64,000 bases of DNA from Yuukianura sp. NJ FZ-2021 (lineage: Eukaryota), in NCBI GenBank assembly GCA_046563655.1, contig CM102283.1, positions 6,572,001-6,636,000 on the forward strand, given 5' to 3'. The notes under the pieces are model-generated. The model made no database searches and was not told the origin of the DNA. It was given only the letters and a program-made list of their open reading frames with translations. Both the position numbers and the translations under genes were made by a program. Positions 16,171 to 60,229 of the stretch are shown here, in pieces (within the stretch, counting starts at the first letter, position 1; the number at the start of each line of letters is the position of its first letter).

Positions 16171-21539
<5,369 letters not shown>

Positions 21540-22746: not shown

Positions 22747-23883
22747 TCAAGCCTTTGCGGCCAGGGCCTTGTCAATGGCAGCACACGTTTGACTAAAAAT
22801 GATGTCCGCATCAGTGTCCGCTGGGATTGTAGCTACCTTTGAGGCGTAGTGGGCCATCACGGGCTCTGAGTGCTTGTGGAACGTGTCCAGTCGTAGTTTT
22901 ATTGTCTCCTCGTTGTCATCTACTCGGCCTGAGCTGAGTCCACGTCCAAGAAGACGTTTCGTCATAGTTTCATCTGAGCAGTTGTAGTAGAGAATCAATG
23001 TACAAGGGGCAATCTACAAACATAACAAGAACGTAAAGAGAGAGTCACATAAATGAAAATTTTCATTATTAAACAGGAAAGGTTTGATTGGTTTTACTTT
23101 GGACTCAAAATCGATTCCTTGCTCGACCTCCCGAGGGTAACCGTCGATGAGAAAGCCTTTGGCGGAAGACAGGTTCTTCTCAATGGCCGCTTTAATAAGG
23201 TCGAGAACTACTTCTCGGGGGACGAGAATTCCTTTGGACATGATGTCGTTGAGTTCCTTGCCCTTGGCTGAGCCAGAGGCGACTTCGTCACGAAGGAGAT
23301 CACCAGAGGACAAGTGGATGAAGCCGTACTTTTCGACTAGCCGAGCACATTGTGTTCCTTTTCCTGACCCAGGGCCACCAAGTACCCAAAAGATTGGAAC
23401 CGCTTTTAGTTTCTGAAAGAAAAAGTTCAAAATTACTAAGGATTAAGGATAGCATGTATTTTGTTTAGCGACCCCCTGAGCATTTGATTTCGCTTACATA
23501 CGGACTAGGAGGTCGCTTGTTCTTTTTCCCTACACCACACATGCTAGGTCAGTAGGTCAGTTGACCTCACAAGGCCTAAATTTTGATTTTAAAAATTTTG
23601 ACAATGCCCGTAGCATGGGCGCTGTGAATAAAAATCAATGAAAAGCGACGGACGAAATTCTGCGTAAAATTTTCATTATCTTCTGACCTTTGTGTCGTCG
23701 TTGTTTGTTTATCAAAACTATTGACTTTAATTTATTCCGATACCAGTTTCCACAGCAACAAAAAACGTTAATTTCTATACTTTGGCTGAAATAAACTGAA
23801 GTTTTTCAATTTTGAAATTATTCTAGATTACAGACTGCAGTAAAAGCTTAAGATTTTTCATTACTTACCTCGTCACCACTCAT
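22747..23883 (-). CDS. Adk1: Adenylate kinase 1; exons 23883-23869 (or alternative 23542-23498), 23412-23098, 23013-22747
   Basis: P-loop [29 protein letters not shown] and short [18 protein letters not shown]. Confidence 0.95.
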
Positions 23884-28900: not shown

Positions 28901-31900
28901 AATAGAAATCAAACGTAAAAGACAAGTATTTTATAGTAATCATAATTTACTAAAGTATATTTCAAGTTTAGTAAGTTAGGATGATTTGTAATAAGAGGGA
29001 CGAATCAAGAAAAAAATCAGCTTAGGGTTATTTCTTTACATTTCAAAGGCTAAGGTGGTAAAGTCGTCCTTTGGACAAACGTTTTACGGTAGTGAGTGAC
29101 ATGGCTGAAAATTGGGTATATCGTAATCAATCACTACTAATATTTAAGTTGTATTTTTAGTTATAAGTGTATTTCATATTGCTGCTGCAGCAAATCTGGT
29201 GACGATGACCTGTGATGAGGTTGTTTAGCGTTGGGTTATGACTTGGCCGCCTTCTTCTCCGCTTCCTTGGCCTTCATCTTGGCCCGTTGTTCTTCCTTGG
29301 CCTTCCCGCCTTTCGGCTTGTTCTTCTCCGACTTGGAATTCGGTTTCGGGACGAATTCCTTCTTCTCCGACTTTGGTGGCATGTCTGCTCCGTGGATGTG
29401 GATGAACTCCTAAAACGTCAATTAAATACACACAATTAGTTTAGCCGTTCGCATGTCATTGACACCATGTCAGTGTCGTGTTTATAAACATGTTTACCAA
29501 GTACGAGCATAGTTACAACTAAAACGAGCCGTTATGGGCTACCAGCCGTTATAACGGCTTGGCCACCGCAACTCCAGCCTCCAGCCACCCCTTCCCTCAC
29601 AAAAAATTGGCAAGGACAAAGGAAAGGCAAACGGGATTGGTTGATACGCGCTAACTAGCATTAACATTAACATTTATATGGCTTGTTACTCTCATTCATG
29701 AAGTGTTACATTCAATTAAGTTGTACTTACCGAGATTAGTAACACAGACGTGTGTGGCTGAAACTTAATGAATCGTTGTTAGATTGATGTGTAGATGTGC
29801 TGTTTGAAGAAGTAGAAGCGAAGAAGTGTTCGTGTCTGTCCTGGATTCTTCTGGATTCTTTGGTAGTTTGTTGACTATAGAGCGGGTATAAGGTGACTTT
29901 GAAATTGGGGCATGGAAAATAGAAGCGCAGCGAGCAGAGGGTTGGCCAAATCTCCGCCAAGTCGGAGCGTCCCGAACGTATCCAAACGACAATAGCCAAT
30001 ACATAGGCTTTTGTTCGTTTTCAAAACATAACCTAATATTAAAACATAACCTAACAACAGCCTTCACAAACATAATACTATGAATTAATGATTAACTTAA
30101 TCAATTATTTACATTTGACACAATTTTAGACATCACGCTAAGAAAAAAGCTGACGACGATGCCAAAAAGCGAAAACGTCGGAGGCAAAGTCAAAACTCGA
30201 AATAAAATATTTAAAAAATTCCAATTCAAAATTTATTTAGTCAATAAAGTTTACTTAAATTCTTAAAATTCCGATTTTCTCTGACGAATCTGAAATATTA
30301 AAAAAAGTTCCAGAAATTTTTGAAAACAGATTCAATTTTTGCAAATTAAAAAAAAATTCTCCGAGCAGATCCAATTTTTTCCAATTTGCTTTTTCCACTT
30401 TCACCGAAAGTCTCCATTTTCAATTCCGTTGAGAGTGAAAAAAATCTAATCCTTGCGGCATGGAAGTCTACACCAGGTTCTCAGCTTTAAAAAAATTTTC
30501 GAAACCAAAAACCCGTAATTGAAAATTTCGGAAATGAAAAATGTTCATAACCATTTTTTGGAAATTTAGAATCAGTAAAACAAGAGAAGAGAAAGAGACA
30601 GAGATGAATGAAAAAGGAAAGTGAAAGTAAATTAGTTTTTCTCCATTTCATTAGACTGCTGCACACGAGCACCTAGGGCTTTCTCCTGTCAAATTGATAC
30701 AGCAAGTACCCCCCCCCCCCTTCTCGCCAAGTCCCCCTCCCCTGTTTCCTTGATTTGCTCCCTGTAGATGCTACTGATTTAAAGGATTAAGGTCATGTCA
30801 CACTCCAAGGAGCTCCATACTTGCTCAAGAGTGGTTACCATGCCATAGGTTATGCCATTTTCAAAAGTTCCCGGGCAAAGTGGCATGCCTAAGGTTAGAT
30901 TTAGTAGTGGCAAGGAATAACTCTATTAAGGAATTCCCCTACCACTTTCTCTTGTATCCCGAATTCCCAGAAGCGGAATTTCATCTTCAGGTGAAAAAGC
31001 GGTTGACTGCCTCCGTGCTGTTCAATGCTCTTCTATAGTAATTGGCTCCAATACTTTCTCCCCGAATTCGTGTTAGGATAAAAACACGCCTTTTGCCTAA
31101 CCTATAACCTAATCTAATGGTGTCTAACAGTGTTGCTGGATATCCACTTTTCCGACATTTCATCCAGGGCTGGCTATCCAGTGGAAGAAATGGACGAAAT
31201 CGATGAATCCAAATGGGCGGAGCTTCGCCCGTGTGGCTTGAATTATTATATGCAAAAAGCTTAAACTATTCAAAATACCGTAAAAAACGAAGGAAATATG
31301 TTTTTTTAAAGAGTTTTAAATAAATAATTAATTTTCACGATGAAAGAAACTCTTTTTAAATTTTGCAATTTAATTTTTCTTTTTTTGAATTCCTCGCTAA
31401 ATTGTTAATTTCTTCCGTCCATAAAAGTTTCATCCATTTCGGGTGCATTTCTTCCAGTGGAAGTCCACTAGACGCTTAAGCGTCCAGCTACACTGGTGTC
31501 TAACATAACCTGGCCTAACTTTAACCTAACCTTGAGCCTGTTATTTGGTTTCTGTTTTTACAGAAAAGGAATGCGGAGATCCAGAATCGCCGGCAGAACT
31601 GGGAGAAGTGCATGTGACAGGGAAAGTGTTTGGATCCAAGGCTGTGTACTCGTGTCCAGAAGGATTCCGTCTCGTTGGACTTGAAGAAAGAGTGTGTCAG
31701 GCAGATGGAACCTGGTCAGCATCACCACCCGCCTGCAAAAAGAACAGTAAGACACGACAATCATTGTTTCCTATCGATTCCCTACAAACTACAAGCATTC
31801 CTAGCATTTTCGTTTACGTTTTTAAAAAAAAAAGCGAGAGAAAAGAGAAAGAAACAGCAAAATTGTCTTTGCTGAATCGCTGTTTTGTTTTTTCGCGGAT

Positions 31901-34900
31901 TGAGCAAAACTTAACACCAGGATTATGTTTGAAGTGGGACAAACTGTGCCGGAGAATTTTAAATTTGAAAAACTTTTCGAGTTTTTCAAAAAATTTCTCA
32001 TGAGACAACGTCAACTTTTCATTCCGGAAGGAAACAAGGGAGAGGATGTGTTGTTGAGCGTCTCATTTATTCTCTAGGGTGAAACTCTTGTCTTCATACT
32101 TTTACTTAAGTTTGTGTGTCGCCATTTCAGAAATGAATCTGAGAAGAAAGCAATTTTAATAAATGCTCGTACAACGCGTCTCTTCCTCCCTCTTATGTCT
32201 TATCTTGTCTCTCAAATGTCATAATTCCCGCTCCGAAATCACGTACGCCATCTTTATCTTATTTTCTCGCTTTCCCTTAGTTACTCTACTTTCCTGAAAA
32301 GAGATTTTCCAATCGATCAATGTTCAAAAACCTTCTTAAAAAGTAGGTAGCAATTTCTTTTAGAACGTGTCACCATACTTTCTCGTTTTTCAATTCCAAA
32401 AAAAAATCAAAAAAAGAAGAATGTTTTTTTTTATTGAAACAGAAACCGAAAGGACAAATGCCTCTTGGTCAAAATTTCATTATGAGAGAAAGAACTTCAC
32501 TTTCACTTCCAAAACAAAGAAAAAGCAAACAACAAAAAAAGTTCTTTAGAGAAAAGTAGGATAAAAAAACTGCATCTTCAAAAACAATTTGAAAAATCAA
32601 ACCAACCAGGCCAAATTAATTTCCAGGTGAAAGCAATTCTACAAGAAAGTGAAAGCACAGGCAAACAAATTATCCGCAATTAAGCAGATGAGTAACTAGG
32701 TTATGTTTACATTTTGTACGGATTCTTAGGTTAATTACTGTTTTCAGGTTAGGTTAGATTAGGTAGGCTTCGTTGCTTTCATATTAGGTCGTCTATTCTG
32801 CTTTTCCTTTGTTAGCATCTCTTCTGTTGGAGTTGTTTGAATAAACTCCTAGTTGACTTGAAGTTGTGTTCATATTTCACTGAATTCCTATGTTGTTTTC
32901 CAAGATTGTGCTTTGGTTTTCATTTTCTCCTGGAAAAGCAGTGAGAGAGAGTTGTGTTGTAATAAATTCCGGTGATCAAAAGAAGACGCACATGTGCTTG
33001 GTTAGGTTTAGGCACCTAACCTAAAGCTAAGGGAGAAATGATTAGCCTCAGCATTCCAGTTGACTTTGAACTCCCGCTTCCCAGCAACGATACGACATCA
33101 AAGGAGACATTGCCAACTCTACACCACTATGTTTTCCCTTTGAAACGACTAACCTTAACATAACCTAACTTATGTAGAACCAAGGTCCTCTCCATCACAC
33201 AACCACCCGCTCCCTTCTGTTCCTACCCTAATTTCATCATCATAATTTTCACTTCATGCCTCGCTTATTTCCTCTTTTCCCCACATCCACTTTCTCTTCC
33301 AACCTAATCCAAAACAAACCTCAGTCAGCCAATCCACACCCACTTCAACGCGGTTTTTCTCAGAACATAACATAACATACAATGCTTTTCATACGTTATG
33401 TTGGTTCATACCTTCTCGGCTTACTAGGTTGGTTAGTTTAGGAAAGTATAAGGTTAGGCTAGGAGTATGTTATGTTTCTCTGTCTATTGTTAAATTGTTA
33501 GGTTTTGGAAGATGCTGGAAGCAAAAGGAAACCTGAAACTGTATTTTCTCTTGAAAACCTATTGAGACTTTCTCTTTTCAAACTGTTCGAAGTGAAATGG
33601 ACAAAAGACACGAAGAGATTCACTTTTCCTGTTCCAGGAAATCGACGTGGGTGGAGAGTGACCTTTACTTTTGAAAAGTAGAGGACACTCACAATAGTGG
33701 TTGCAACATTGTAAAAAAAAACTTTTTTGAAACTCAAAAAAAACTTTCTTGAAACTTTCAAAAAAATGAAAAGAAAAAAAGAAGTCAGCAATCGAAATTG
33801 AAGAGTTTGGTCATGCAGGATGTCGCTCGTGTAAAAAGATGTAATTTGGAAATTTACGGTATTTTAAATTTGGTTTTAACGACAACTCAAAGGATTTTGC
33901 GCAGTGAAAGTTTGTTTAAATGTGTCTTTGTCCATTTTTTTTCTGCTTTTTCTTTAATTTGAACTTTTTTTTGGATTTCAGTTTACTGTAGTCAGCCGCC
34001 GGTAATTGACCACGCGCGACACAACGCTCCAGCGGAACAAACGACATTTCCGCAAGATACTTCACTGCAGTACCAGTGTTTTCCAGGCTACGTCACCAAG
34101 GGCTTTGCTCGTACCAAATGTTTCCTGTACAATGGAACTGCCAAGTGGTTCGGTCCAGACATAACTTGTGAACGTAAGTTTTAGTCTTACTTTTAGGCAC
34201 ATGACTGTTCTTAACACAACAAAAGTCAGAGGACTCATCCTGGATTTAACACACAAATCCAGCCGGAGAAAGACAAAGTTGTAAAAGCCCCAAGAAAAAA
34301 GTACTTTCCAAGAATAACATCCGAAATCTAATACAACCCGTGGAGTGCACCGTACAGCCATAGTTACTCCCTCCACCACTTTTCCTGGAAAAAAACTTTT
34401 TATCCAGCACATACTGCTATAAAGTTTCACTTATTGAAAATTGGGTTGTTCATCTTCCAGTTTTAGTCTCTCCTTCCTGATCAGAATCAAAGATCAAGCG
34501 TCACTCTTCTTCTTCTTGCCTCCGTTCTTTGTTTGTTACCCGGGTAAAACTTTTTTCGGTTTTCTTTTTTTGAAAAAAGAACAAAAGTTATGACACTCCA
34601 GGGAAGCTCCATTTACAACTTTGAGGAAATATTAGTATTCCAAAGCCGCAGACAGGTTTTTTCGAAAACTTTTTTTTAGAAGGAAAACTTTTTGCGGGTA
34701 AACTTGAAAAAAGATCATAATTCGGATTTAATACTCTTTTTTTTTCAAAAAGCGCGAAGTTGTGGTGAACCTGCTGAAATTCTCAATGGACATCGTTCGG
34801 GCAGTTGCTTTCACTTTACCTGTAAAGTGACTTACCATTGCCAAGCGGGATTTGAGCTTTTGGGAAAATCTGAACTGAGTTGCTTGTCCGATGGCACATG

Positions 34901-37900
34901 GAGTCCTGCTGACCTTCCAACGTGTGTCCGTAAGTTTTGAGGTCAAAGGTCAACTTTAAGTTTAATTGCTTAGGGTTCACATTTTTATTGGCGTTTTCTA
35001 GCTGTCCAGTGTCCAATTCCGGAAAATCCGCAACATGGCAAGGCCGTTTTCAGCACAGTGTCGTTCAATTCGTATGTCAACTACGAGTGCAAGTATGGCT
35101 TCATGCTGGTGGGTGAAGGAAATAGAAGATGCGGTGCAAATAAGAAATGGACAGATGCTGAACCACTTTGCAAAGGTATTTTTTAAATTTGAACGTTCCC
35201 GCTCTTTTAGATTTTTTGAAATTAGATAAAGTTAGCTTCCTGCATGTCTGTTTTTCTTTCATTTCTGTGACCTTTGATATGTTTTGTTGTCAGAAATCAA
35301 CTGTGGGAGTCCCGGACTCCTTCACAATGGTTGGCTGGAGGGGTCAAGGACGACGCTCCATGCAGTAGTGCTGTTTCACTGTCTCCAAGGAACAGCATTC
35401 GATGGGGCAGACAGAGCAGTGTGTCAATCTGACGGAACTTGGTCACATCCCCTGCCAAAATGTTACGGTACAATTTTCAAAAAAAATTGAAAAGATTCAA
35501 CTTTCACCAAAATCAAAAAAAGAAGAGATTTTATCGAAAATTCATTTTGAACCTGGGAAAAATGTGTGACGAGAGAGAATTTTCAAAGCAAAAACAGCAA
35601 ACACGATTGTTCAATTTTTAAAAATTCATTGAAAAACTTTTTCTTCGGTGTTTTTTCGACGGGTTTTCTTTCAAGCAATTTTTTTTTTCAAAATTGGCAG
35701 TTTTTGACAATAGAAAATTTGGATGCAATTGGTTGTGACGAAATTTGTTACAAATTGCAGGGCGGGAAAAAATGATGATGATTTGAAATTGTACGTTTCT
35801 GGAAAATAATGAAGGATTTCCGGGACCTCCACTTGCAGTTGACTTTCTACTTTCTCTTTTCCTTTCCTTGTGTTTACTCCCAGTTGCTTTTGATTCGATT
35901 ATGCTAGGTTGGTTAGGTTAGCCTAACATACCCTTATTATTAACCTAACTAACCTAAACCATGATTTAGGTCAATCAGTTCCTCTTTATGTCCATATTTA
36001 GAAATCAACTGCGGAGATCCCGGAGTCCTTGCCAACGGTTGGGTAGACAATGTTGAGCGGAATTGGGGCGTAGGGGCGTCACTCATTTTTCGGTGTTTTG
36101 ATGGCATGACGTTGGTGGGACACAGTTCGTCCGTGTGCCACGTCGATGGCTCCTGGAGATACCCGGTTCCTCAGTGCCTGGGTCAGTTTTTAGTAGTACT
36201 AAATCCCCATTCATGTTCCGAGTCACTTAAGGGCCCCCAGAACTCAAAGTACCTCTGGAGTACCTTCCAGCAAGGTTTTTTGACTTTGATTGTTTTTAAC
36301 ATGTTGGCTGATACCTTATGTCTTTTTTGATTTTGCATAAAAAGTAACCTATCATTTCAGAGCATCGTAGTGAAAACAATACAGCCGAGTTTTTTAAATT
36401 TTGCACACGATTTGGTAACATTTTTTTGAATTTGTACTAAAATTGGTACCAATTTTTGTTTTTTGTTTTTTTTTGTCAGCAAGCGAGGTAGTACCCAACC
36501 TGTTAAAGAAAATTCGCTATTAGTTGTCAAGGAACCTTGCCTTCCAGAACCGATGTGTTGTGTCTGAAGGTCGTTAAAAGAAAATGGAGAGGTCATTAAC
36601 CGTTCTCTCTCGTCCCCCAGTCTCTCCCTCGTCATTGAGTAATGGCCCAATTAATTCGTTTATGTCTCTAAAGCTCCCTGTACGATTCCTCCCGTTGCCT
36701 ATGGAAACGTGACCTCTCGACCTGACATTCATGGAGCCACAAACGAAACGGCTAATACGATTCCAGTCATTTTAAGACCAGGAACGATCGTTCCGCATGG
36801 AAAGGTCATTGGAGTTCAATGTGAAAAGAAGTACGAACCTACCTATAACATTACACCCTCCACTTGCTTCAATGGTACATGGACTCATGCTCCAAAATGT
36901 CAACCAGGTTACAAAATTTTTCAAAAAATCAAAATTTTGAAAAAAGTTTATGAAGTTGAAGTATTGCTCAATGTTCCATAGCTCGTTGTAAGCACTTGCC
37001 GAAAACTCCTAGGAACGGAATGGTTATTGCTCCTAAAATGGAACATGGAATGAAAGCGCGTTATCGATGTCGCGATGGCTTTAACCTGATTGGTCAAAAT
37101 GTTACGGAATGTCAATATGGTGACTGGATTGGCGAACCACCGATTTGCAATCAGAGTAAGTGGTTTCTAGAACTAATGAAATGTTATATGCTAATGAAAT
37201 GTTATGTTAATTTTGTGGGATTACCTTATGCATATGCTATTAGCCTACTGTAAGTATCCTGGAAGCATTCTAAACGGTAAAGTACTTTTGGTTGGAAACA
37301 TGGGACTCTACGACTACAGAAACTACGTTACTAAGGTTGCCAACAACCGTCAAATTACTTTCGACTGTGACAAGGGCTACGTTCTATCTGAAGGGCCCCT
37401 TGGCAAAACTTGTCTTCACGGAGAGTGGTCACCTAAAGCAGATCCGCCAAGGTTAGTCTGCGCATGTGCAAAAAGAAACTACTTTTCTTTCACCATTTTA
37501 CGAAATTGTGTGACGTGGATAGTTTCCCCCAAGCTTGTTAAACAAAAAGAAATACTTTTTGAAAATTCGAGTTATTGCCTAACCTGTTAAAGAAAAACTA
37601 ACTCGTTGTCAAGACACCTTGGTTTCCCCATTTTTGCTACAGAATCCAAAATAAAAATTCATTTTTTCGAAATATTCAGATGCATTCCGAGTCAGCATCC
37701 AAACTTTCGTTGGATTCGACGCAAGCGTCGTGCCATTAAAGCTGGTGGTGGAAGTCTTGTTAGAAATAACAAGGCAATGGGCGGTGGTGGTGGTTCTGGA
37801 GCACGACGTGGGTCGCGGCGGCGCAAACTGCCGGACGGTGAAGAAGATTATGATCCAAGTAAGTTTCCAAAATTTTTGAAACTTTCACGGAATTTTGAAA

Positions 37901-40900
37901 TTTGGATTTGAATTGTTTGAAGCTCCTATGCTCTGCGAGGACTTGGACGAAGATCCTTACATTCAGTACGAAGTGATTGAGCACGGTGAAGATGATAACA
38001 GTTCCTTTACTGCTGGTACGGTGCTCAAGGTCAGTTGCACGGCAGGTTTCGGCGTCAACTTACAAAATACGACTGTTCGTTGTGTCCACGGTGGCTGGAA
38101 ACCGACTTTACCGCAGTGCGATGCACGTAAGAAACTCAATTTTTGGAATTTGGAGCTAATTTTAAATTGAATTTTGCTCGAGTGTTAATTTTCCCGGGCT
38201 TTTTAAGTTCCCTGCAAAACTCCGCATATTTGGCATGGATCGTTTTTCAACGGCACCGTCCCTTCGAAGCTCCTCTATTTTCAGGAAGTTGTGAAGCACT
38301 CAAAGCAGATCGAACTCCGCTGTAGCAAAGGCTACGTCCTCAGCGGACCTGCCAGAATGACCTGTTGGTATGGTGAGTGGGACGTTCTGGAACCACCTGA
38401 ATGCATTGCAGGTTTGGAGCGCATTTTCAAAAAAAAAAATTCCAAAATTTTGAAAAATATTATATCCAGAAAATCTTCTTCCAGCTACTTGTACGCTCCC
38501 ACCAATAGAATATGGAACCTATCTTGGAGGTCATCGCTCTAATGCAATCATTCAGCACAACATTGAAGTACGATTGTTTGATTCATTTTTTAAAAAGTAG
38601 AAGTTTTTTTGAAAAAGGAATTAATCTTGCTTAGAAAACCGAAAAAATATTTTTTATGCACCACCGACTCCTTTCGAAAGCCATAAAGTAAGAAATCAAT
38701 TGGAAGTGCACCCCATAAAACTTTTCTTTTAGAGTTGTGCACCGATGGAATTTATTACCCATCCCCACCATATATACTTTGTGTCCTTGGCTCAAGTAGA
38801 AGGTTACATTAGGTTAAGCTAACCTAATGTAAAATGGAAAGTTGGAGGTCACAAGGTCATTTCCATATTTTGGTGATTTTGACTCCGTAGGTGGACTATG
38901 TGTGTGGAGGGGACTTCCGGAAGATCAGTCCTGGCCCAAGTCGTTGCCATTTGGGAGAATGGCGCCCCAGTAAGCCCCACTGCTTCCATTCTTCTGTGGC
39001 ATTCAACTACACTGACTTGGAGTACTCTGAAACTGGAAGCAGCAGACGCCCCAGGGGTGACGCAAGGTCGTTTTTGTCCAGAGGAGCCATTCCAGGAGCT
39101 TTGAATACCCGGAAACCATGTATTCAACCGCCAAAAGAGCGTGGAGCGATTGCCTACTTTGAAGGCAGACCGATTGACTACGCTCATGATTTCAGGTAAT
39201 ATCACGAATTTAAGTAGTAAGAATCCCAATTTCAGGTAGGAAAACGATTTCAAGCAAAATCGAGATTTCAGGATTGCTGGTAAAATCCCGATTACAGGCA
39301 CGAAAACGATTTGAGGTAAAATCGTGATTTCACATGGGAACACAATTGCTGGTAAAATCGTGATTGTAAGGATTAAGAGGAAATACGCATTTCAGGTAGG
39401 AATGTGATTTCGAAAAAATTGTGACTTCAGGTAGGAAGAGGAACGCGATTTCAGGCAGGAATGCGATTTTTGCTGAAATCGTGTTTGCAGGTAGATCGCG
39501 ATTTTAAGTTAAATTTTTGTTTTAGTCGCGGCTGGGATTTCAGGTACGACCAGGTAGGAGTTTTTTATGACGTTGAAATCGTTTCCGTAGTTTTAAATCG
39601 CTTGCCCAAACGTCCCCTTTGAGCGTTTGAAATCCAGGAAAATGCAAAACAACGTCCATTTTTCTTGTGCGTTCCAGAAGTTGCTGGAAAGAGTCCAAGG
39701 GGAGCCGCTAAGATTATCCCATTCATTTTGTCCAAAGTCCCACCTTAATCCCACCGCCATCCAGGAACTCCAGTCAGAGTCAGATAAATAATAAAAATAT
39801 ACTCTACAGCACGCTCGTTCTCAAAAACTTCCAGAACACTCTTGTTCTAAAAAAGGGAAAAAGCGAAAGCTTCTGTTTTCTATTTGAGCACGTCGCTTGA
39901 CTAAAACTTTTCACTTTTTTAGCTTTCCAGACGAATCCGTGACGTTGTATAAATGTTCCAATCCGAAATCCAAGGCCAAAAACCGCTGGAAGATCACGTG
40001 TGAAGATGGAAACTGGACCGGATCTAGAATGACTTGCGGTAAAAAAAATCGCGGGAAAATTCAACACTTGAAAATGCTTTAGTTTACTTGAGAATCAAGT
40101 TCCGTGAAATCCGATTCTTGATTTCTAAGTCAATATGAATTTTTTGCGAACATGTTCTAAAAAAGTTTTGTTCAAACAGAAATAATTGAATTGAAATTGA
40201 TTTTTCTTGTTTTTTCTAAATAGAGGGAGATGTGCCTGAGGGCTTGGTGGAGAGTTTACTTAAAATGATCAATGGTCCTTGTCTTTTTGATAAAAAAGAA
40301 GACCATGTCGTAACTTTTTTCAATAATCAGGAAGTTGACAAGGAAGATGTTGAGTATCCATCGTCGACATTTTTGGTAAGCATTTACGAAAAAAAACTTT
40401 GACCTACATTTTTTTAACAGATTTTTGCTTCTGAAATTGGCCAATTTCTTTTATTGACCTATGTGATGAAATGACCTTTCATTTCTTTCTTTGGCATAAC
40501 CTAATCTCCGAAATAGCCTAACTTATTCTGTATCTTGCAGATCTCAAGATGTTCCGACATTGGGAAGTTTGAGATGCATGGTTCATGGTGGAGAAAATGT
40601 GTGTCTGGCCAATGGCTTGGCATTAAGCCAACTTGTGAAGGCCTAAGTCAGTTCAATGATTATTCACGTAAGGATTAGCTTTCTCCGCAGTAGCATCACA
40701 GACTTTCTCCAACTTCCTGCCAAGTTATAAATGACTTTCTCTTCTTTACGTTAGGCTACTCTTGTTAACTTGGGCAATTCGCTTGTCCATTTTCTAGGTT
40801 ATTTCTTGTGGAAAGTGGACCTAACCAATCCCATTCTTTTGTTATTCGACTTGTTCGATACTTAAGTTTCTTCCGTTTGGACACAAATCAATGGAGAGTC

Positions 40901-42652
40901 ATTTATCTCTCGCGCTTGAGTGACTCTAAAGAGTCTTTTAGCTTTCATGTATTCTGAAAAACCTAGAAAGCCTAACCCAAATATCTAAGCCTAACTTAAA
41001 GCCTAATCTGAAATGATGATGAATTGTTTGGACAATTTACTAGTCGACAGACCACCGACCATCCTCTTTCGTCAAGTCAATGGTTCTATGATCCAGAGTA
41101 ATGATGGGAAGATGGTCGTTTATCCTGGAACGACGCTCCACATGGAATGCATTTGGATGCGCAAGTTCGGACGGCCGAGATGGGATCATCCCAACAACAG
41201 CTTTCCATTGAGGCATTAGCACAACATAGAAAAAACGATTTTTTTTTCAAAATTTTGCATTTTGAAACGTGAAAGTAGCTTTTTTTTTTAATTTAGAACT
41301 TACGAAATTGGTTGGACAAATGACACTGGACGAGAAGCTACGCTGGAATACCGTATAACTGTGGATAATGCCCAAGAAGAAGATTCAGGCCTCTATACGT
41401 GCACGACTCCATCAAAACATGCCCACAAAGTGGAAGTTGTTGTTAAACGTAAGCATATATTTAATTTGATACGGAAAAAGGCGGTATTTTGGAACTTTAC
41501 ATTTTAAATTTTTGGCGCGCGTGGGTTTGATTAATTTGAATTTGAACAGGGGTTGACTGTCCAAAGCATCCGGAGCATGACGACTTGCAGTACTCTTCAA
41601 TGAACCGCGAACTTGGGACGATCGTGACATTCAACTGTAGCAGCGGAAATGCAGTCGTTGGAGCGGAGATGATTTATTGCACGGCAGAAGGAACTTGGTC
41701 TGCTCCTTACCCACGCTGTGAAAGTAAACTCCAGCCAATTTTGAACTTTTGAAGAAAAAAAAAGTTTGCCGCCAAAACACTTTTGCTTGTTTTGTTGTAG
41801 ATGTTGAATGTGCTGACATCTCCATTTTACCGGCAATGGCTCCGCTGGCTTACACTGCTGTTACTAGAAACGGAACTTTGGTTAGAAACGAAACGGCTCC
41901 ACCGAAGATAACAATTGGTGGACGAAACGTCGGAGCGAAGGCGTACTTTACATGTCCAGTGGGTTTTGTTATTCATGGAGCTTCGGAAGCAACTTGCCAG
42001 ACCTCTGGAGAGTGGTCAGCAAATATCCCCCTCTGCAAAGGTAGCCAAAACAATTTGAGCTAAAGGTTTTTCAAATTTTATATAATTATGTATACTGTGC
42101 CATATAATTTTAAAATAGAGATTTGAAACAAAAATTTAAAGTGTTTATGATACTGTAGAGGTGGAATGTGCCGATCCGGACCCGCCCGATAACGGTCACG
42201 TGTCAGGGTCCGGGACGCCGTACAAGGCGGGAGATTTCGCCCAATTTGAATGTGACCACGGATTTATGCTGGAGTCGAGTCAGAACACTGTAGAATGTTT
42301 GGGCACTGGAAAATGGTCGAGGATTTCTCGACTCAAATGTAATTTTCAAAAATTCTCATCCCGCTTGAGGCTCATAAGCCAGGATTTAGGGTAATTTTGA
42401 AAAAAAAATTAATTCCGTTTTGGTTTTCTTCTGGAATTAGGTGTGCAGGCTTGCACTTATCCAGGAACGATAATCGGTGGCACAATTTCGGAAGTTCGTT
42501 TCAACTACAAAGTGAATGAGACGGTGACATTTGACTGTACGGAGGGCTATACGCTCATTGGAGCCAGAATGCTCCATTGCTTGAAAAATGGAAAGTGGTC
42601 AAATTCAGTGCCCACTTGCGTTCCAAACAGAAATGGAACCAGGGCTTCGTAG
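25980..42652 (+). CDS. Secreted WAP + multi-CCP (sushi) + Ig synaptic scaffold protein with a Hasp/LEV-9-like N-terminal half and a Hikaru genki-like C-terminal half; about 25 exons
   Basis: Signal exon 25980-26040 (MSLCHFVLFLGLYFCFLHFT). WAP exon 26529-26765 (CLRKCVSDEDCKSKRKKCLCDGPCGLSC). CCP exons start at 31564. RWIRRKRR near 37708, RGD at 39053-39061, Hig-type Ig region (PPTILFRQ...QSNDGKMVVYPGTTLHMECIWMRKFG). Stop TAG at 42652. Confidence 0.9.
26271..26438. mobile_element. 168-bp MITE with ~48-bp subterminal inverted repeats and 9-bp TSD (Mutator-like), in intron 1 of the WAP-CCP gene
   Basis: Direct repeat AGCGTGCAT at 26262-26270 and 26439-26447. Arms CAGGTAATTTGGTCGGAA...GAGGTCGGCA and TGCCGACCTC...AAATAACCTG have about 4 mismatches. 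Internal AACCT repeats. Confidence 0.85.
29236..29382 (-). CDS. Nested antisense Lys/Glu-rich smORF, 48 aa (MPPKSEKKEFVPKPNSKSEKNKPKGGKAKEEQRAKMKAKEAEKKAAKS)
   Basis: Strong GC3 codon bias within an AT-rich intron. A TTTTAG acceptor lies just upstream (~29410) and a GTAAGT donor near 29730 defines a non-coding first exon. Confidence 0.7.
   Translation of the reverse strand: MPPKSEKKEFVPKPNSKSEKNKPKGGKAKEEQRAKMKAKEAEKKAAKS
31128..31495. mobile_element. 368-bp hAT-type MITE with 13-bp TIR and 8-bp TSD
   Basis: TIRs CAGTGTTGCTGGA and TCCAGCTACACTG (1 mismatch). TSD GTGTCTAA at 31120-31127 and 31496-31503 fits the nTnnnnAn pattern. Subterminal inverted repeats TGGAAGAAATG...GATGAA. Confidence 0.85.
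39185..39560 (+). repeat. Degenerate ~18-bp minisatellite (GATTTCAGGTAnnAATCG-like) beginning at an exon-intron junction
   Basis: Many degenerate copies of CGATTTCAGGTA-like words. The first copy is the real donor at 39195/39196. Confidence 0.75.
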
Positions 42653-43194: not shown

Positions 43195-43795
43195 TTTTCA
43201 AAATGTTTTGAAGTTGGAAATCTGAGAACGTTCGTTTAACAGGTTTGAAAATTAAATGATAGCTAAAATTTAACTTTATGTGTGTTGTGGCGCAGTTTTA
43301 TTTGGAATTGAAGGTAATTGGCGATGTGAGTGACTAATTCCAGGAAAGTTTTCCATGAAATGCTTACTCAAGTGAAGAAATTTAAATTAACACAAAGCCA
43401 CAGCATCCTTCAGCAATTGTAAATTTTTCTATTGTGTTTCTAACAACTAGCATTAGTGCAAAGTGACATAACAGAGTCGAGGTTTTAGTCCAAGTTTATT
43501 GTGCTGTTCCAATTTCCAAGACTTATTCACTTAAAAATCACAATTGCTTGAATCCATGAATCTTAAGTGGATTTTTACCACATACAGCTCCTATCCAAGT
43601 AAATTAGATTTTAGACTTCTGCTAATTAACACTTGAGTGAAATTTTAGTAATTAACACTTAAATACCCATTTGGTGCTAATTACTCTTAATTGACGGACA
43701 TTCGTCCCTAAATACTTTTTTACGCTATAAATATTGACGATTCTGCCCCAAAACTTCAAAATCCTTTTCATTTAAGAAGTTTTCTTTTGAGCACA

Positions 43796-44350
43796 ATGCA
43801 AACCGGAACAGTTTTTCTCGCAGCCATCTTGGTTTTGGCGCCAACTTTTCTCCCGGGAGTTTTTGGAGCCATTGTTGACCCCGCGACGGTCACTTGCGGT
43901 GCACAGGAATATACTTGGTGTGACTTTGACAATGGCTTGATTCGTGGTGGATCATCTCCAAGGAAGTGTGCAGGTCAATGTATCTGTGAAGGTCACCCTT
44001 CATTTCATGGAGATAATCTGGATTGGGTCAACGGAAGATGCGAAACCACTGAAGGTCATGCATGTGGAACAAGCAAGGACGGGACGATGGAAATCTTTTG
44101 CGCAAGCGGTCTGGAGTGTATCGTTGGCCGATGCCGGGAACCGAACTTTGCGAAACTGCCGGCACGCAAAAGGTGTCGTGACGATGTTGAATGTCAAGAG
44201 GGACTCAAATGTCGCGTTCACTTTGTCAGCAGCCCACCATTGCCGAGACCGAGAACAAAGCGTGCCATTGGTCCGCAGTATTGCTGCTCTGCAAGGGAAG
44301 CTGAAGTGGAAAACAAGTCTTATACTCTGGCGGAGTTACCTTGCGACTAA
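43796..44350 (+). CDS. Intronless secreted cysteine-rich protein (184 aa) with EB/DKK-like Cys modules
   Basis: Signal peptide MQTGTVFLAAILVLAPTFLPGVFG. Modules CASGLECIVGRC and CRDDVECQEGLKC. TATAAA near 43727 and AATAAA near 44370. Confidence 0.8.
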   Translation: MQTGTVFLAAILVLAPTFLPGVFGAIVDPATVTCGAQEYTWCDFDNGLIRGGSSPRKCAGQCICEGHPSFHGDNLDWVNGRCETTEGHACGTSKDGTMEIFCASGLECIVGRCREPNFAKLPARKRCRDDVECQEGLKCRVHFVSSPPLPRPRTKRAIGPQYCCSAREAEVENKSYTLAELPCD

Positions 44351-44650: not shown

Positions 44651-45637
44651 TTATGGCTTGATTTCTCCATTGTCCAGCATGTACTTGACTTCCTGTTCCA
44701 AAGTTTCGTAAACATTGGGGTGACTTGGTTTCCATCCGATTTTTCGGCTTCGGTTTGCTACACAACGACTGTCACCTTCCCAAAGTACCCGGAATTCATC
44801 TCCCCACAGGTACTTGTCAACATATTCTTTCTCAAATTCTGAAACTTCAGCAGTAGTCACATGACCCAGTTTGTGCAGCACTTTTCCAAGATGTTCAGCC
44901 ACCTTGCCCCACTCATGCTCCGTGGTGCTTGCAAAGTACCAGCCACCTTGTTTTCCACTTTCAATCGTATTGGACAGGAGTCCGTCCAGGACGAGTCGAT
45001 AAAGTTCAGCCACATCGTGGATGTTCACGTTGCCCCAGACAACGTTTCGGCGTTTTCCGACCCACCCAGCCTTCTTTCGACCAATCGCTGCTAGGGCCAG
45101 GTTTGGAACTTGCTGTGAAGTCTTGCGGAATGGACCGTTGCTGATTCCGTTGATTGTAGATGGAGCAATAATGGCTGCAGAAATGCTGTCAACATTGTCG
45201 TAGATCCAAGCATCAACGTGTTTATGTGGAGCGTTAAGAGGGATGGCATGGATTCGAGCCATGTCTTCATCATCAAATGGAACGTCAATTGCTGCTCCAG
45301 AATAAGTTAGAACTCCAGTTCCAGAAGTATGGACATAAACTGCTCGCTTGTCATGCTTGGCCGTGAGTCCTTTGACAATGGCTTTGGCAGAGTCCAAATG
45401 ATCAGCATGCGCAGTGTGCACGACAGCATCGGAGTCTTTGGACCATTTAGTCAGAAGGTCAGCGTCGTCCAGTCCTCCGAGCACTGGAGTCACTCCTAAC
45501 TTCGTCAACTTCTCAGCATCTTTGATACTGCGTACAAGTGCTGAAATTTGGTACTTGTTTGGGTATTTCAGCAGAACAGACAAGACAGAACCGCCAATGT
45601 AGCCAGTAGCTCCGGTCAAAAATACTTTAGACGGCAT
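44651..45637 (-). CDS. NAD(P)-dependent epimerase/dehydratase (atypical SDR, fungal-type), copy 1, 328 aa, intronless CDS
   Basis: TGATGYIGG Rossmann motif, ALVRS, YVHTSGTG, WGNVNIHDVA, SRKIGWKP. A 5'UTR intron is likely at 45644-45790. Confidence 0.9.
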   Translation of the reverse strand: MPSKVFLTGATGYIGGSVLSVLLKYPNKYQISALVRSIKDAEKLTKLGVTPVLGGLDDADLLTKWSKDSDAVVHTAHADHLDSAKAIVKGLTAKHDKRAVYVHTSGTGVLTYSGAAIDVPFDDEDMARIHAIPLNAPHKHVDAWIYDNVDSISAAIIAPSTINGISNGPFRKTSQQVPNLALAAIGRKKAGWVGKRRNVVWGNVNIHDVAELYRLVLDGLLSNTIESGKQGGWYFASTTEHEWGKVAEHLGKVLHKLGHVTTAEVSEFEKEYVDKYLWGDEFRVLWEGDSRCVANRSRKIGWKPSHPNVYETLEQEVKYMLDNGEIKP

Positions 45638-46606
45638 TTTGTACTAAAACAAATGAACTTTGAAAAAAGTGAGAATAAAGTTAGAATTGCACAAGCGTAT
45701 GGAAGAATGAATTTGTAAATGGATCGGCACAGGTATAAATATCAAAATTTTGTACTTTGAGTGCGGAAAGTGGACGGTGACGTTACTTACATGGTGCTTT
45801 GATGACTTCGTTCTTTTTACAAGGACGCTCAAGTGGCTTATTTGTTCCAGAATTAAACTTTATCATGGGTGACAATGACAATTCTATCCTGACCAAAAAG
45901 AGGCGTCTCAGATAACCGTGGTGACGTTATGTTCAAGATTATGTAATGATTATGAGCTGATCACGAGTGTCAAAAGTTTGGTATTCCAAAGCTAAAATGG
46001 ACAAATTACGTAATAGCTGTTTCAATAAACAGAAATCGATGACAGCATAGTAGAACAAAAACACTCTGGAAATGCCTGGTTGAGGTGTGATACGCTAGTG
46101 GAAATCAATTTTTGGCACTTTGGAAAATTGCTATCACCTTGTTTTGTCAATTTGTCTATTGTTTGGCCTTATATGGTCATTCGTCACGATTGACACCGGT
46201 ATAGTTTATTCACTTAAACTCTAAACGCATTTGAACAAACATGCCATGCTAAAAACTGAAAATTATTTCTAGCGGTCAGCGCTATCGTCTGAAATGGGCT
46301 GATTAAAATTGCGTTGTTTGCCGGTTAGTAAAAAAAATTATTGAAAATGGTAACCACCAAAAAAAGATTTTCAGTTAAAATGAGTTTTTGAAATTAGTTT
46401 AATTAACTTACGTTGATCCATATGTAATTGATACGCCAATACATTTATGCAGTAGTATAGTATATGACTAAACAATTTTTTGAAACAGGACAGTTTTTAA
46501 CTTTTGAAGTTTTTCCTTCATTGTTTTCAAATTTTTATTGCAGTAGCGTTCCCTTGATAATTCAAGTTTTGAATTCATTTTTTTAATCGTTTCGTATTTG
46601 AAGTTT

Positions 46607-47754
46607 TTAAGGTTTGAGTTCCCCATTGTCCACCATGTACTTGATTTCCTCTTCCAGCGTTTGGTAAATATCAGGATGAGTCGGATTCCATCCGATTTTT
46701 CGGCTTCGGTTTGCCACACATCTACTGTCCACTTCCCAAAGAACCCGGAATGTCTCTCCCCAAAGATGTTTGTCAACATACGCTTTTTCAAATTCCGAAA
46801 CTTCTGGAGTAGGCACCAACTTCAATTTGTACAGCGTTTTTCCCAGAAGTTCAGCTACCTTGCCCCACTCATGCTCCGCGGTGGTGCCAAAGTACCAACC
46901 GCCTTCCTTCCCGCTGTCAATTGTATTAGACAGGAGTCCATCCAGGACAAGTCGGTACAGTTCAGCCAAATCCAAGACATTCACGTTGCCCCAAACAACG
47001 TCTTTTCTCTTCCCGGCCCACCCAGCCTTCTTCCGCTCAACCGCTGCTTTGGCCAGGTTTGGAACCTGCGATGAAAGTTTTCGGAACGGACCAGTACCGA
47101 TTCCATTGACAGTGGCGGGAGCAATGATGGCAGCGGTGATACTGTCGACATTGTCGTAGATCCATGTGTTGATGTCTTTGTGGAGAGCTGTAGCTGGAAT
47201 GGCATGGATTCGGGGCATATCGAGGTCATCAAATGGTGGTTCAGATGCTGCGCCAGGATAAGTGACGATGGCAGTTCCAGAAGTTTGGATATAAACTGCC
47301 CGCTTGTCACCCTTGGCCGTGAGTCCTTTGACAAATGCTTGTGTAGATGGTAAATGATCAGTTTGTGCTGTATTTACGACTGCATCTGAGTCTTTGGCCC
47401 ATTTAGTCAGAAGGTCAACGTCTTCGAGTGCTCCAATCACTGGAGTGACTCCAAGCTTCTTCAGTTTTTCAGCATCTTCTGGGTTTCGGACAAGCGCTGA
47501 AATTTTGTACTTGTCTGGATATTGTAGAAGAAGGGACAAGACGGAACCGCCAATGTAGCCAGTAGCTCCAGTCAAAAATACTTTGGCCGGAGCTTTTAGT
47601 TGAAAAAAAAAATTTAAACAGTATTAAATTTTCGAAAATTAAAGAAAAAAGGTTTTCAAATTCAGAAAAAAGTGAAATTCGGCCTACCTTGTGCTTTGAT
47701 GTCTTGCCCTTTGTTCTTTTTACATGAGCAGTCACGTGGGTTGTTCAATGACAT
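46607..47754 (-). CDS. NAD(P)-dependent epimerase/dehydratase copy 2, about 350 aa; exons 47754-47688 and 47592-46607
   Basis: Close paralog of copy 1. The position of copy 1's ATG reads GCT, but an upstream exon supplies an in-frame ATG (MSLNNPRDCSCKKNKGQDIKAQ|APAKVFLTGATG). Confidence 0.8.
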
Positions 47755-48149: not shown

Positions 48150-48695
48150 TCAGCCCCATCGAAGGCGCATGGCATAAGGACGTCTTGGACTCGCCTGGGT
48201 AGAAAAGAGGCGCCGAAATTCTGAAATGAAGTACTCAGCAGAGGTGCTTGGCGGAATGTGATACTGGAAGTAGCTGTCAGATCGAGGAGCGTAGCGTTGG
48301 TTGTACAGCTTCCGAGCATGCGCCTTCTGAGTGTCCAATAAACCAGTGTACAGTTGCGACAAAGCTCCGATGGATCGGGAGGATCTTGAATTTTGGTCCT
48401 CTTCTAGCTAGAATTTAGAAAAAATATCTGTAAGGCTCATGCATTCAACAATGCTCAAAAAAGTTGAGAACTTTTTTGGGAATACCGGAAATGTTGGAGA
48501 TGTTGAGGAAAACGTTTGAAGTGTCCAGTATTGTTCACTAAATGGACCGTCTGCGTCTGCGTAGTAACTGTCTTGACTTTCTTCGTTATCCGGCGAGCTG
48601 ATTTTCAACGGTATTTCATTTCCCACCACCAGTGGAACCAACAGTATCCAAATAGAAAACAAGACGCGAAAAAGACGACGTCGACTAAGCTCCAT
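48150..48695 (-). CDS. Putative neuropeptide precursor (155 aa) ending MRLRWG-stop, sNPF-like RLRW-amide; exons 48695-48486, 48407-48150
   Basis: Signal peptide, acidic pro-region, basic sites RSSR, RK and RR, and a C-terminal Gly amide donor. Phase-0 GT-AG intron. An upstream non-coding exon is likely (GTGAGT donor near 49369). Confidence 0.75.
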
Positions 48696-51600
48696 TTTCC
48701 TTTTTCAACTGAAAAAATATTTTGAAATCAAAACCTCAGTTGCGAAAACATGACTCTTAGCACAAATTTTGAAAGATTGAATTAGCGAAATAAGAGCAGA
48801 ATTAATTCGTTTTTTAATTAAAAATTTCGTCCTCGCCTCCAAAAAATTGAATTATTCAGACGAATTTCTTTTTGAGTCTTTGAAGCAAAACCCACGCTTA
48901 GCTACCCCACATGTCGCCTTCAAAGGAAAAGCTCTTTTAATTTAAAAATTTCAGTTAACATTTTGTTACTTAAAGTTCAACACAGTTAACTTAATTTTTT
49001 TCCAATTCCGAAAACAATTTTTCAAAACAAAAATAAGCTTTTAACAAAAATTTATATTCTGAATTTTTGAGATATTTCAAAAAGCAATTTTTATGCATTT
49101 CCAGATATTTGTACCGATTTTCTTTAGTTTACCGATAACAAAATAATCATAGATCGAAAAAAATCAAAATTTTGGAAAAGAAGTATCAGAAGAAAAGTTT
49201 TTAATAGGGGACATTCTTTCGGTGTTTTTTCCCAAGGTTTCATACAGATCACCCAAACGAAAAGCAAAGAAAAATTAGAAAATAGTCAACTGAGGCACAA
49301 AATATGTTTATTGTAAAACCCAAATTACAAATACAACAAAAAATTAGAGAAATTTAAGTAGATACTCACCTTTGTCTTGAGATAACTAGTAGAGATAATT
49401 TTTTGGGAAACTTGTTGCGTCTGTAGCGTTTGTATCGCAAGTGTGGGAACGATGCTTGAAGAAGATGCTGCTGGTGGAGACCCAGAACGAAGATGGCTCA
49501 TTCATCATTCATTTGTCGGTTGTCTGCTCATGTCGTTGGGAATGTCGCTTTGGGTTAATGGGAAAGTGGAGAAAGTACGTGGGGGTCCTTGTGGGACTTT
49601 CTTTTAAAAAGTTTTTACTTTTGTTCCTGTTTTCCCCCACAGGAATTCATTAGAATCTCTCCGTCCCACGTAACTAAGAACATTTAAACCTTTCCGGAAA
49701 CATCGACAAGGAAAAGTATCGCGCAACATTGTAACATACGTTGCTCCACTATTTGTATACTTAGCTAAGCTCAACTAAACATACTTTTTTAAAGATGATA
49801 CTTCCTTATTTATGTAGGTGTAAAGAACGATCAAAATCAACCAAACCTTTGAAATGTGAAATTCGTAACAACCAAAAACTGACCAAACGTTCGAGTACAA
49901 CATTTTAAAAAAAATTGCGCTTGTAGTGTACCATAGATAAGCATGAAAATTTGTTATATATTTTTTGGATTAATTTGGTTTTGACAAAAAATAAGCATTA
50001 AAACATTTCAGTTTCAGTTTTCATGATCTTCCTTAAGTGGAACTGTGGTTCCATCTTTCGTTTGGAAGTGGATTCGACGTGTGAAAAACGCCAACGTTAC
50101 GTAACACCGTGAATTTGTTAAAGGATGTCTCCGGTAAGTGGAGTTCGCGAAGCCTGCTAAATCTCCAACCCTTCTCACATAACACAACTAAAATTCAAAC
50201 TATCTATTAGTTCTTCGATTCTTCATATTTTTTTCTCTTTTATTAATTTTTTAAAAGGCTTTTTAGTCTTCTCTTTCCTCCTCCGAAGTTTTTTGCCTCT
50301 ACTTTTCGATAATCTTTTCCAAATTTTTGAAATTAGAAATTCATAAAGCCAAATAATGTTAAAGGAAATTAAAGATAAAATCATAAATCATAAACAAAAA
50401 AAACTTTTTCATGTTTTTATTTCTATCTTTTGCAAAAGTTGTAACTTTTGTTAGACTTTTGTTAGGGTGAGTAGTTGTGATTGAATGCACATGTGTATGA
50501 TTGGGTTGATTGTTGTGAGAACAATGTGTTTGACGGAATGTGAAGTGACAATGGAAAGTCTTTTTGATTTTTATATTTTGAATTGAGGCTTAATGAAGTG
50601 GGCGGAGGTTAATTTGTGAAGCGGAGGTTTTCAAACGACGACACTCTCACCCCTCCCGCCTAAAACTCCGTCAGACGCTGAGCATTTGCTGGTTCTGCGC
50701 AAGTTACTTTTGGTCCTCTGCGCAGGTATTGTTGGTTCCTTGGGCACTTCGAGTCTCCCCATATTTTAAACAACAATGGGGCATTGTTGCCTTCATGACT
50801 CCGATGATAAGCAACATAGCCTAACATAATCAACCAGCATCTCACACCTCTCCGATCACCACAATTTACGAAGAGAGGTCCATTGGCTTCAAGAATTCAA
50901 AAAAGTTCAGATATAAATCAATTTCGGTATTGAAACTGATAAAAACCGATAAAAAATTAAATTCAGTTTTTCCAAAGTTCAATATAAAATCTTCTCTCTT
51001 GCGCTATAATACTTTGCTTCTCGGAAAAAATTAATTTTGCTTATGGTTGCTTTTGGTTAACGTTTTGTTTTGATTAATTTTTTTAATTTGTTTTGACTTT
51101 AATCGACTAAAATCGATGAAAATTGAGAAAGCGTTGTTATAAAAGTTCCTTTATGCGCTAATAATAGATTCTATTTCTTTCTCTCCTTGATTGTTGGCAT
51201 TGTTCGGAATGCGTCCGTCTAAATACTTTTGTTAGGCCCTTTTCTAGCCGTAAGACGACTCATAACAATTGATTGTAACAATGAAGTAGGCGCAACAATG
51301 GAGTCAGCATCACACATGGACTGAGAGTGTCACTACTAAATCTTTTAGGTGAATCACAATTAGCACATTGTGTTTTTCATACCATCGTTTATCATAATCC
51401 TCATAAATAATAGTTACTCCCTTAAGTGTCACACAATCAAAACCTTTGTTACAATCTTCCCAAGGCTCACTGCCTCTTTTCACATTCCAACAATCAAAAA
51501 CTTAAAATTTCTCTCTTACGTAAAAAAAATACAAAATTCAAAAAGTATCAGAAAAAATTGTTAGTAGATTTAAATTTTAAGAATTTAATATTACAAAATT

Positions 51601-58485: not shown

Positions 58486-60229
<1,744 letters not shown>

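Follow-up and report, generated by a model that had tools for sequence, protein, structure and literature searches.

A likely HanSolin orthologue with a predicted C-terminal RWamide in the genome of Yuukianura sp.

A gene on the minus strand of the window (the stretch of 64,000 nucleotides analysed here) is likely a HanSolin orthologue. The predicted fate of its product is secretion, cleavage at basic sites and amidation, which would yield one C-terminal RWamide. The gene does not represent a novel signalling system; it would add a divergent member to an orphan family that is already known. The first HanSolin was reportedly that of Carausius morosus (Liessem et al. 2018).

Splicing as read from the sequence joins two exons, 48695-48486 (210 nt) and 48407-48150 (258 nt), into a frame of 155 amino acids and a stop codon. 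The sequence-only reading had proposed that two ORF fragments splice in frame into a protein of this length, and the 78-nt phase-0 GT-AG intron, which is the same in an orthologue designated L108, bears this out. The basic sites that it listed are also present: RSSR at residue 78, RK at 102, and RR at 135 and 145. The C-terminus is RLRW-G, with the Gly directly before TGA. The protein contains no cysteine, and the peptide lies at its C-terminal end. The features of the locus are as follows.

48486..48695, minus strand: coding exon 1 (70 codons with the ATG, the predicted signal peptide and an acidic spacer); it encodes a hydrophobic core, and the equivalent exon in L108 is poorly conserved.
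48618..48695, minus strand: predicted signal peptide, residues ~1-26, based on hydropathy.
48408..48485, minus strand: phase-0 GT-AG intron of 78 nt with a predicted junction; position, phase and length are shared with L108.
48150..48407, minus strand: coding exon 2 (85 codons and TGA); 47 identical columns (55%) with L108.
48354..48386, minus strand: RSSR, a predicted convertase site, and the following box, residues 78-88; by-eye counterpart of the HanSolin box KR-[AG]-[LI]-S-x-[LI]-S-R, without W-[KR]-P; RKRK at this site in L108.
48282..48296, minus strand: RYAPR landmark (R-Y-x-x-R); RYAIR in L108, and present in many HanSolin precursors.
48210..48230, minus strand: FISEFRR landmark, which ends in the predicted dibasic site RR135-136; six of seven residues are the same in L108; counterpart of HanSolin F-[VI]-S-A-E-x-R.
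48156..48209, minus strand: predicted amidated 18-mer, residues 137-154, [M+H]+ 2235.21, from putative processing.
48156-48179, minus strand: predicted short form, residues 147-154, 1091.59, likewise from putative processing.
48150..48155, minus strand: terminal Gly, which would donate the amide, together with the stop codon; the Gly is followed by TGA here and by TAG in L108, and Tenebrio HanSolin also ends in Gly-stop.
48709..49369, minus strand: likely 5' UTR intron with donor AAG/GTGAGT and acceptor TTTTCAG; GC content 0.28; the donor context ACAAAG/GT is common to L108.
49370..49537, minus strand: probably a first exon without coding sequence, or a promoter region; it holds two blocks that are conserved (49491-49513 and 49525-49537).

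Strong hydrophobicity is confined to residues 12-24 of the protein, where a 13-mer reaches a KD value of 2.8, versus at most 1.05 beyond residue 35. The GC contents of the exons are 0.44 and 0.52, versus 0.31 for the intron. A codon score was trained on seven long ORFs of the window and compared with a background of 124 ORFs. The score of exon 2 is matched by one background ORF and that of exon 1 by five. An antisense frame of exon 2 scores higher than exon 2 itself (0.165 vs. 0.125), so the codon score alone leaves the strand undecided and is support for the gene, not proof. Exon 2 is single-copy: a protein search of its own 98.7-Mb genome matched solely the gene itself.

L108 is a metagenome contig. 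A pattern search of the metagenome collection gave 178 matches, of which L108 alone encodes a relative, and it is the one orthologue found in total. It shares 55% identity with exon 2 (tblastn, E 3e-23), and its product is 177 aa long with its own hydrophobic leader. Little of exon 1 is conserved, with 18 identities. Conservation peaks in the last 31 residues, including the basic sites and the Gly-stop. Of the 31 codons that precede the stop, 11 agree exactly, 16 show synonymous differences and four show non-synonymous ones. Both RR135-136 and RR145-146 are kept, RSSR corresponds to RKRK, and RK at 102 has no counterpart. The last 12 residues are the same in both proteins. Retention of RLRWG in an orthologue had been set beforehand as a test by the sequence-only reading, and RLRWG-stop is indeed kept in L108, with TAG in place of TGA. 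A Lys codon follows the TGA, which raised the possibility that the TGA was once an Arg codon; this is dropped, since L108 has TAG.

This sequence comparison shows a real gene on which purifying selection acts. The claim of a conserved secreted-type precursor of a C-terminally amidated RWamide thus gains support from L108, with the signal judged by hydropathy and the amidation predicted. The upstream region also retains two blocks in L108 by blastn, one of 23 nt at 91% (E 0.001) and one of 13 nt that is exact (E 0.47). Together with the donor context they suggest a putative non-coding first exon, and a clear acceptor for the upstream intron was not found in L108.

It is extremely improbable that the product is a small secreted protein that stays unprocessed and whose amidation-type ending is incidental. 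The poor conservation of exon 1 would fit such a protein, whereas the focus of conservation on the last 31 residues, the basic sites and the Gly-stop is the usual pattern of a peptide precursor. Atlas features also lean toward peptide-hormone precursors, although their scores (0.84-0.85) are under or near the noise level and are only a lead.

The structure of HanSolin can be taken from the sections of PMC7179676 on this family and from its supplementary alignments. HanSolin is a single C-terminal amidated peptide of variable length with the consensus GQPLRW, and its precursor is among the fastest-evolving single-copy precursors. A mono- or dibasic Arg site is N-terminal of the peptide. In Polyneoptera, the precursor is 88-139 aa long, and the Gly is usually followed by RR, KR or R. 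The alignment ends in R-P-x4-L-R-[WFY]-G. In the upstream part of the insect precursors, the alignments show a conserved box, KR-x-[LI]-S-x-[LI]-x-R-W-[KR]-P, which the passages on the family do not name as defining; F-[VI]-S-A-E-x-R is also present there, and R-Y-x-x-R is frequent. The comparison with these published alignments was made by eye and with short motifs.

The window gene shares with HanSolin the single predicted amidated peptide at the extreme C-terminus. Its ending is R-P-x4-L-R-W-G, and basic Arg sites precede the peptide (RR135-136 and RR145-146), as in HanSolin. Upstream, a basic site, an [AS]-[LI]-x-x-L-x-[RQ] box, R-Y-x-x-R and F-[VI]-S-x-E-x-R are seen in the same order. 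At the positions of the consensus G-Q-P the window protein has A-M-R, a change that would suit sNPF equally well, and A, M and R are each known there in insect HanSolins. In the PMC7179676 supplement, stick insect HanSolins contain RPY and sometimes M, several grasshopper HanSolins contain RRP, A and RLR, and A or M is also seen at these positions in Zoraptera. Based on a by-eye comparison with the alignments in this supplement, every one of the last ten residues of the window protein has a match at its position in at least one insect HanSolin. For the six residue classes that precede LR[WFY]G, the chance probability is ~3e-5, which is overstated, since the classes were chosen post hoc. The three upstream landmarks appear in HanSolin order in both the window protein and L108. 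All three are present in none of 200,000 shuffles of the window protein and none of 200,000 shuffles of L108, and this is overstated as well with motifs chosen post hoc.

Three differences from HanSolin are seen besides A-M-R. Neither the window protein nor L108 has the near-invariant W-[KR]-P; the first eight positions of the box align without gaps with the HanSolin KR box. The precursors are longer (155 aa in the window and 177 aa in L108, versus 88-139 aa). The host is likely not an insect. The Gly-stop ending is unlike the Gly-basic ending of Polyneoptera and the same as that of Tenebrio, and thus Gly-basic is not a strict feature of the family. According to the supplement of PMC9552230, in the part that concerns HanSolin, the Tenebrio precursor of 121 aa ends in Gly-stop and its amidated 22-mer is confirmed by MS2. 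The window gene resembles it both in this ending and in a long amidated form, which is predicted here.

The RLRW end also resembles short neuropeptide F (sNPF). The consensus of sNPF is xPxLRLRF-amide, and RWamide sNPFs are present in flies and mosquitoes, according to the relevant parts of PMC7179676 and PMC8950018. sNPF is an undecapeptide in the middle of its precursor, after RK and before RR (PMC7179676 section 28). The sequence-only reading had noted the lack of the usual sNPF core, and the end of the window protein, P-Y-A-M-R-L-R-W, does depart from xPxLRLRF-amide; this test is not strict, as the sNPF of this genome also lacks the Pro. The same reading had taken RLRF/RLRW-amide as the signature of sNPF. 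Grasshopper HanSolins can also end in RLRF or RLRY (alignments in the PMC7179676 supplement), so an RLR core does not by itself identify an sNPF. Counted by eye over the last 10 residues, the agreement is ~5 with sNPF and 6-7 with HanSolin.

The search for a canonical sNPF elsewhere in the genome, which had been proposed as a check, found a canonical-type gene at G000:C1:6761441-6763922 (+), also covered by L107:4442 and L078:1375-1578. A pattern search revealed its peptide exon at G000:C1:6763845, where RK is followed by an 11-residue peptide ending in LRLRF and then by GKR. An exon that encodes a signal peptide and has a phase-1 donor is 2.3 kb upstream. The label sNPF is based on cockroach precursors and the description in PMC7179676; a protein search gave two close relatives and no named sNPF. 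The peptide of this genome lacks the usual Pro (N-T for P-S), and the two close database relatives share this loss. Three earlier patterns missed the gene, which has K after the Gly and no Pro, and the candidates L060-L062 were rejected; the fourth pattern found it. One of the earlier patterns gave 84 matches, of which 25 loci and 14 stretches were translated.

Since a separate canonical sNPF gene exists in the genome, the window gene is not the sNPF orthologue. A lineage-specific sNPF duplicate that lost its C-terminal extension and converged on HanSolin is quite improbable. It would account for the R-L-R-[FW]-amide end, for which RW variants in Diptera are a parallel, and for the presence of both genes on the same contig, 140.7 kb apart; scattered sNPF duplicates are also reported for non-pterygote hexapods in the parts of the literature on them. 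The precursors differ in their layout, however. The sNPF gene (L078/L107) carries RK before and KR after a mid-precursor peptide and has a phase-1 intron, whereas the peptide of the window gene is terminal, without RK before or RR after it, and its intron is phase-0. The R-E-x-x-E-x-L motif upstream in sNPF precursors is missing from the window protein, which contains the HanSolin landmarks instead. The two loci are separated by numerous unrelated genes.

The start codons of the sNPF gene and the window gene are separated by 140,746 bp. For a single gene named in advance, the chance of lying within that distance on either side is ~0.3% in a genome of 98.7 Mb, and it would be higher if similar families were counted. 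In this one genome, the linkage is a lead for a shared origin. A cluster of RFamide genes was considered and dropped: no further R[FWY]G-basic precursor is seen between or just beyond both genes (C1:6756001-6756999, ~1 kb, was left out). HanSolin and sNPF may have a deep kinship. It can be speculated that HanSolin arose long ago by duplication of sNPF. This gene, with its RLRW core and its 141 kb linkage, would then be a missing link, the family would be older than the insects, and a GPCR of the sNPF-receptor type would be predicted; this whole scenario is rather unlikely.

A new lineage-restricted RWamide family, unrelated to both HanSolin and sNPF, is highly improbable. The missing W-[KR]-P and the longer precursor would agree with it, as would the lack of homologues in protein databases and Pfam. 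Against longer proteins exon 2 gave nothing at E<=10, nor was there a candidate of similar length. Among 1.84 billion representatives it matched three, all repetitive proteins aligned in several stretches, which were rejected. Pfam returned DUF1961 alone (E 0.17). The protein databases gave no HanSolin match either, with thresholds and word indexes that would miss so distant and short a peptide. HanSolin is one of the fastest-evolving single-copy precursors, and a blank in the databases is therefore expected. The four ordered landmarks common to HanSolin also argue against a new family. So does the outcome of three genome-wide patterns, which gave no further HanSolin candidate.

These genome-wide searches were made on DNA and could miss a locus with an intron inside the motif. 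The RPx4LRWG pattern gave five DNA matches, two as protein and one terminal. A wider pattern for HanSolin-type decapeptides gave two DNA matches (four in the control), and at the protein level it matched this gene only. The RW[KR]P box has 37 matches in the genome (34 translated, three excluded by codon reading), and none is preceded by KR. A P-x-R-[WF]-G-basic pattern matched seven sites in the genome, with no precursor among them. Several loci were rejected as HanSolin-like: L018 and L020 are off-frame or within unrelated ORFs, the peptide of L071 is not terminal and has no basic site, and L109 and L140-L143 were also discarded. The text of the Derst 2016 supplement has no RLRW or RLRF sequence.

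The preference for HanSolin over a new RWamide family or mainly an sNPF paralogue, which the sequence-only reading had considered, comes from the decapeptide, its terminal position and the upstream landmarks, and from the separate sNPF gene. Precursors of the Luqin/RYamide type carry their peptide or peptides near the signal peptide and have a two-cysteine C-terminal domain. Their RWamides share the RW-amide end with the window gene, whose cysteine-free protein and terminal peptide set it apart by this description.

The signal peptide would route the HanSolin-like precursor into secretory vesicles. Prohormone convertases would cut after RSSR (residue 81) and after RR (136), and carboxypeptidase would trim the ends. 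Amidating enzymes would convert the terminal Gly to an amide, with no downstream cut needed. The 18-mer is probably the product, and the 8-mer PYAMRLRW-amide is the alternative. Pro after a basic pair usually hinders cleavage. The 18-mer is considered more likely because a Pro follows RR145-146, and it is further favoured because Tenebrio HanSolin occurs as a long amidated form. The 8-mer is favoured because full identity with L108 spans the last 12 residues only, and because 8-mers are predicted in grasshoppers and the pea aphid; in grasshoppers they follow RR, according to the HanSolin section of PMC7179676. The earlier proposal of an amidated 18-mer with a Pro-blocked second RR is therefore plausible in view of the Tenebrio 22-mer, and the short form may still be released in view of the grasshopper 8-mers.

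The mature peptide may signal, as a hormone or neuromodulator, through a class A GPCR; a receptor of the sNPF-receptor kind is the most plausible, as the LR[WF]-amide end of the peptide suggests. HanSolin is among the few insect neuropeptides with a function stated as unknown in the literature, and the passages on the family name no receptor. In a termite, hansolin is expressed in the brain and ovary, with higher levels in queens and nymphs (passages of PMC10148640). This expression points to a possible reproductive role.

In the passages that name the family, HanSolin is known from insects only, down to Thermobia (an unpublished remark in PMC7179676), and it is reported missing from two shrimp assemblies. 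No HanSolin outside insects was found in these passages, and Liessem 2018 and other subscription papers may hold a springtail form. Literature listings on springtail neuropeptides, LRW-amides and a receptor link contain nothing on this gene. The 2016 survey of non-pterygote hexapods predates HanSolin. As for the host, the present data show a hexapod-type sNPF gene and arthropod-like neighbours. A member in this probable springtail would move HanSolin back to the base of hexapods. The comparison would separate old residues (R-P, L-R-W-G and F-x-S-x-E-x-R) from losable ones (W-[KR]-P). A testable lead on the origin and receptor of HanSolin would come from its RLRW core and from its loose linkage with sNPF.

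Another peptide precursor is seen at L066:1255-1770 (-), located on G000:C8 near 8442477. It is apparently a single-exon precursor with a signal peptide and three NFIR[FL]G repeats, and is likely of the extended-FMRFamide type.

Directly downstream of the HanSolin-like gene, two NAD(P)-binding ORFs of the NmrA/epimerase-like type stand in tandem at 44651-45643 (-) and 46607-47623 (-). Their frames are long and uninterrupted, and they may resemble microbial enzymes found in springtails. A small cysteine-rich ORF of the secreted type is at 43712-44350 (+) and has no Pfam match. By eye, other genes in the window are taken to be a cysteine-rich adhesion/Methuselah-like GPCR (2342-5335, +), an Abl-like C-terminal region (16529-18866, -), an adenylate kinase (23014-23442, -), a multi-Sushi-domain gene (31536-42063, +) and a SoxB-type HMG gene (58486-60229, -).

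Between the HanSolin-like gene and the sNPF gene, ~6 similar small ORFs of the secreted type with an N-W-G-D-W motif are arranged in tandem (L151-L152, G000:C1:6712000-6721000, +). We assume this array to be VMO1-like. Elsewhere on the contig, L074/L077 and L075/L076 (G000:C1:4.34-4.36 Mb and 4.85-4.87 Mb) are near-identical pairs in opposite orientation, ~0.5 Mb apart. These pairs suggest a putative inverted segmental duplication.
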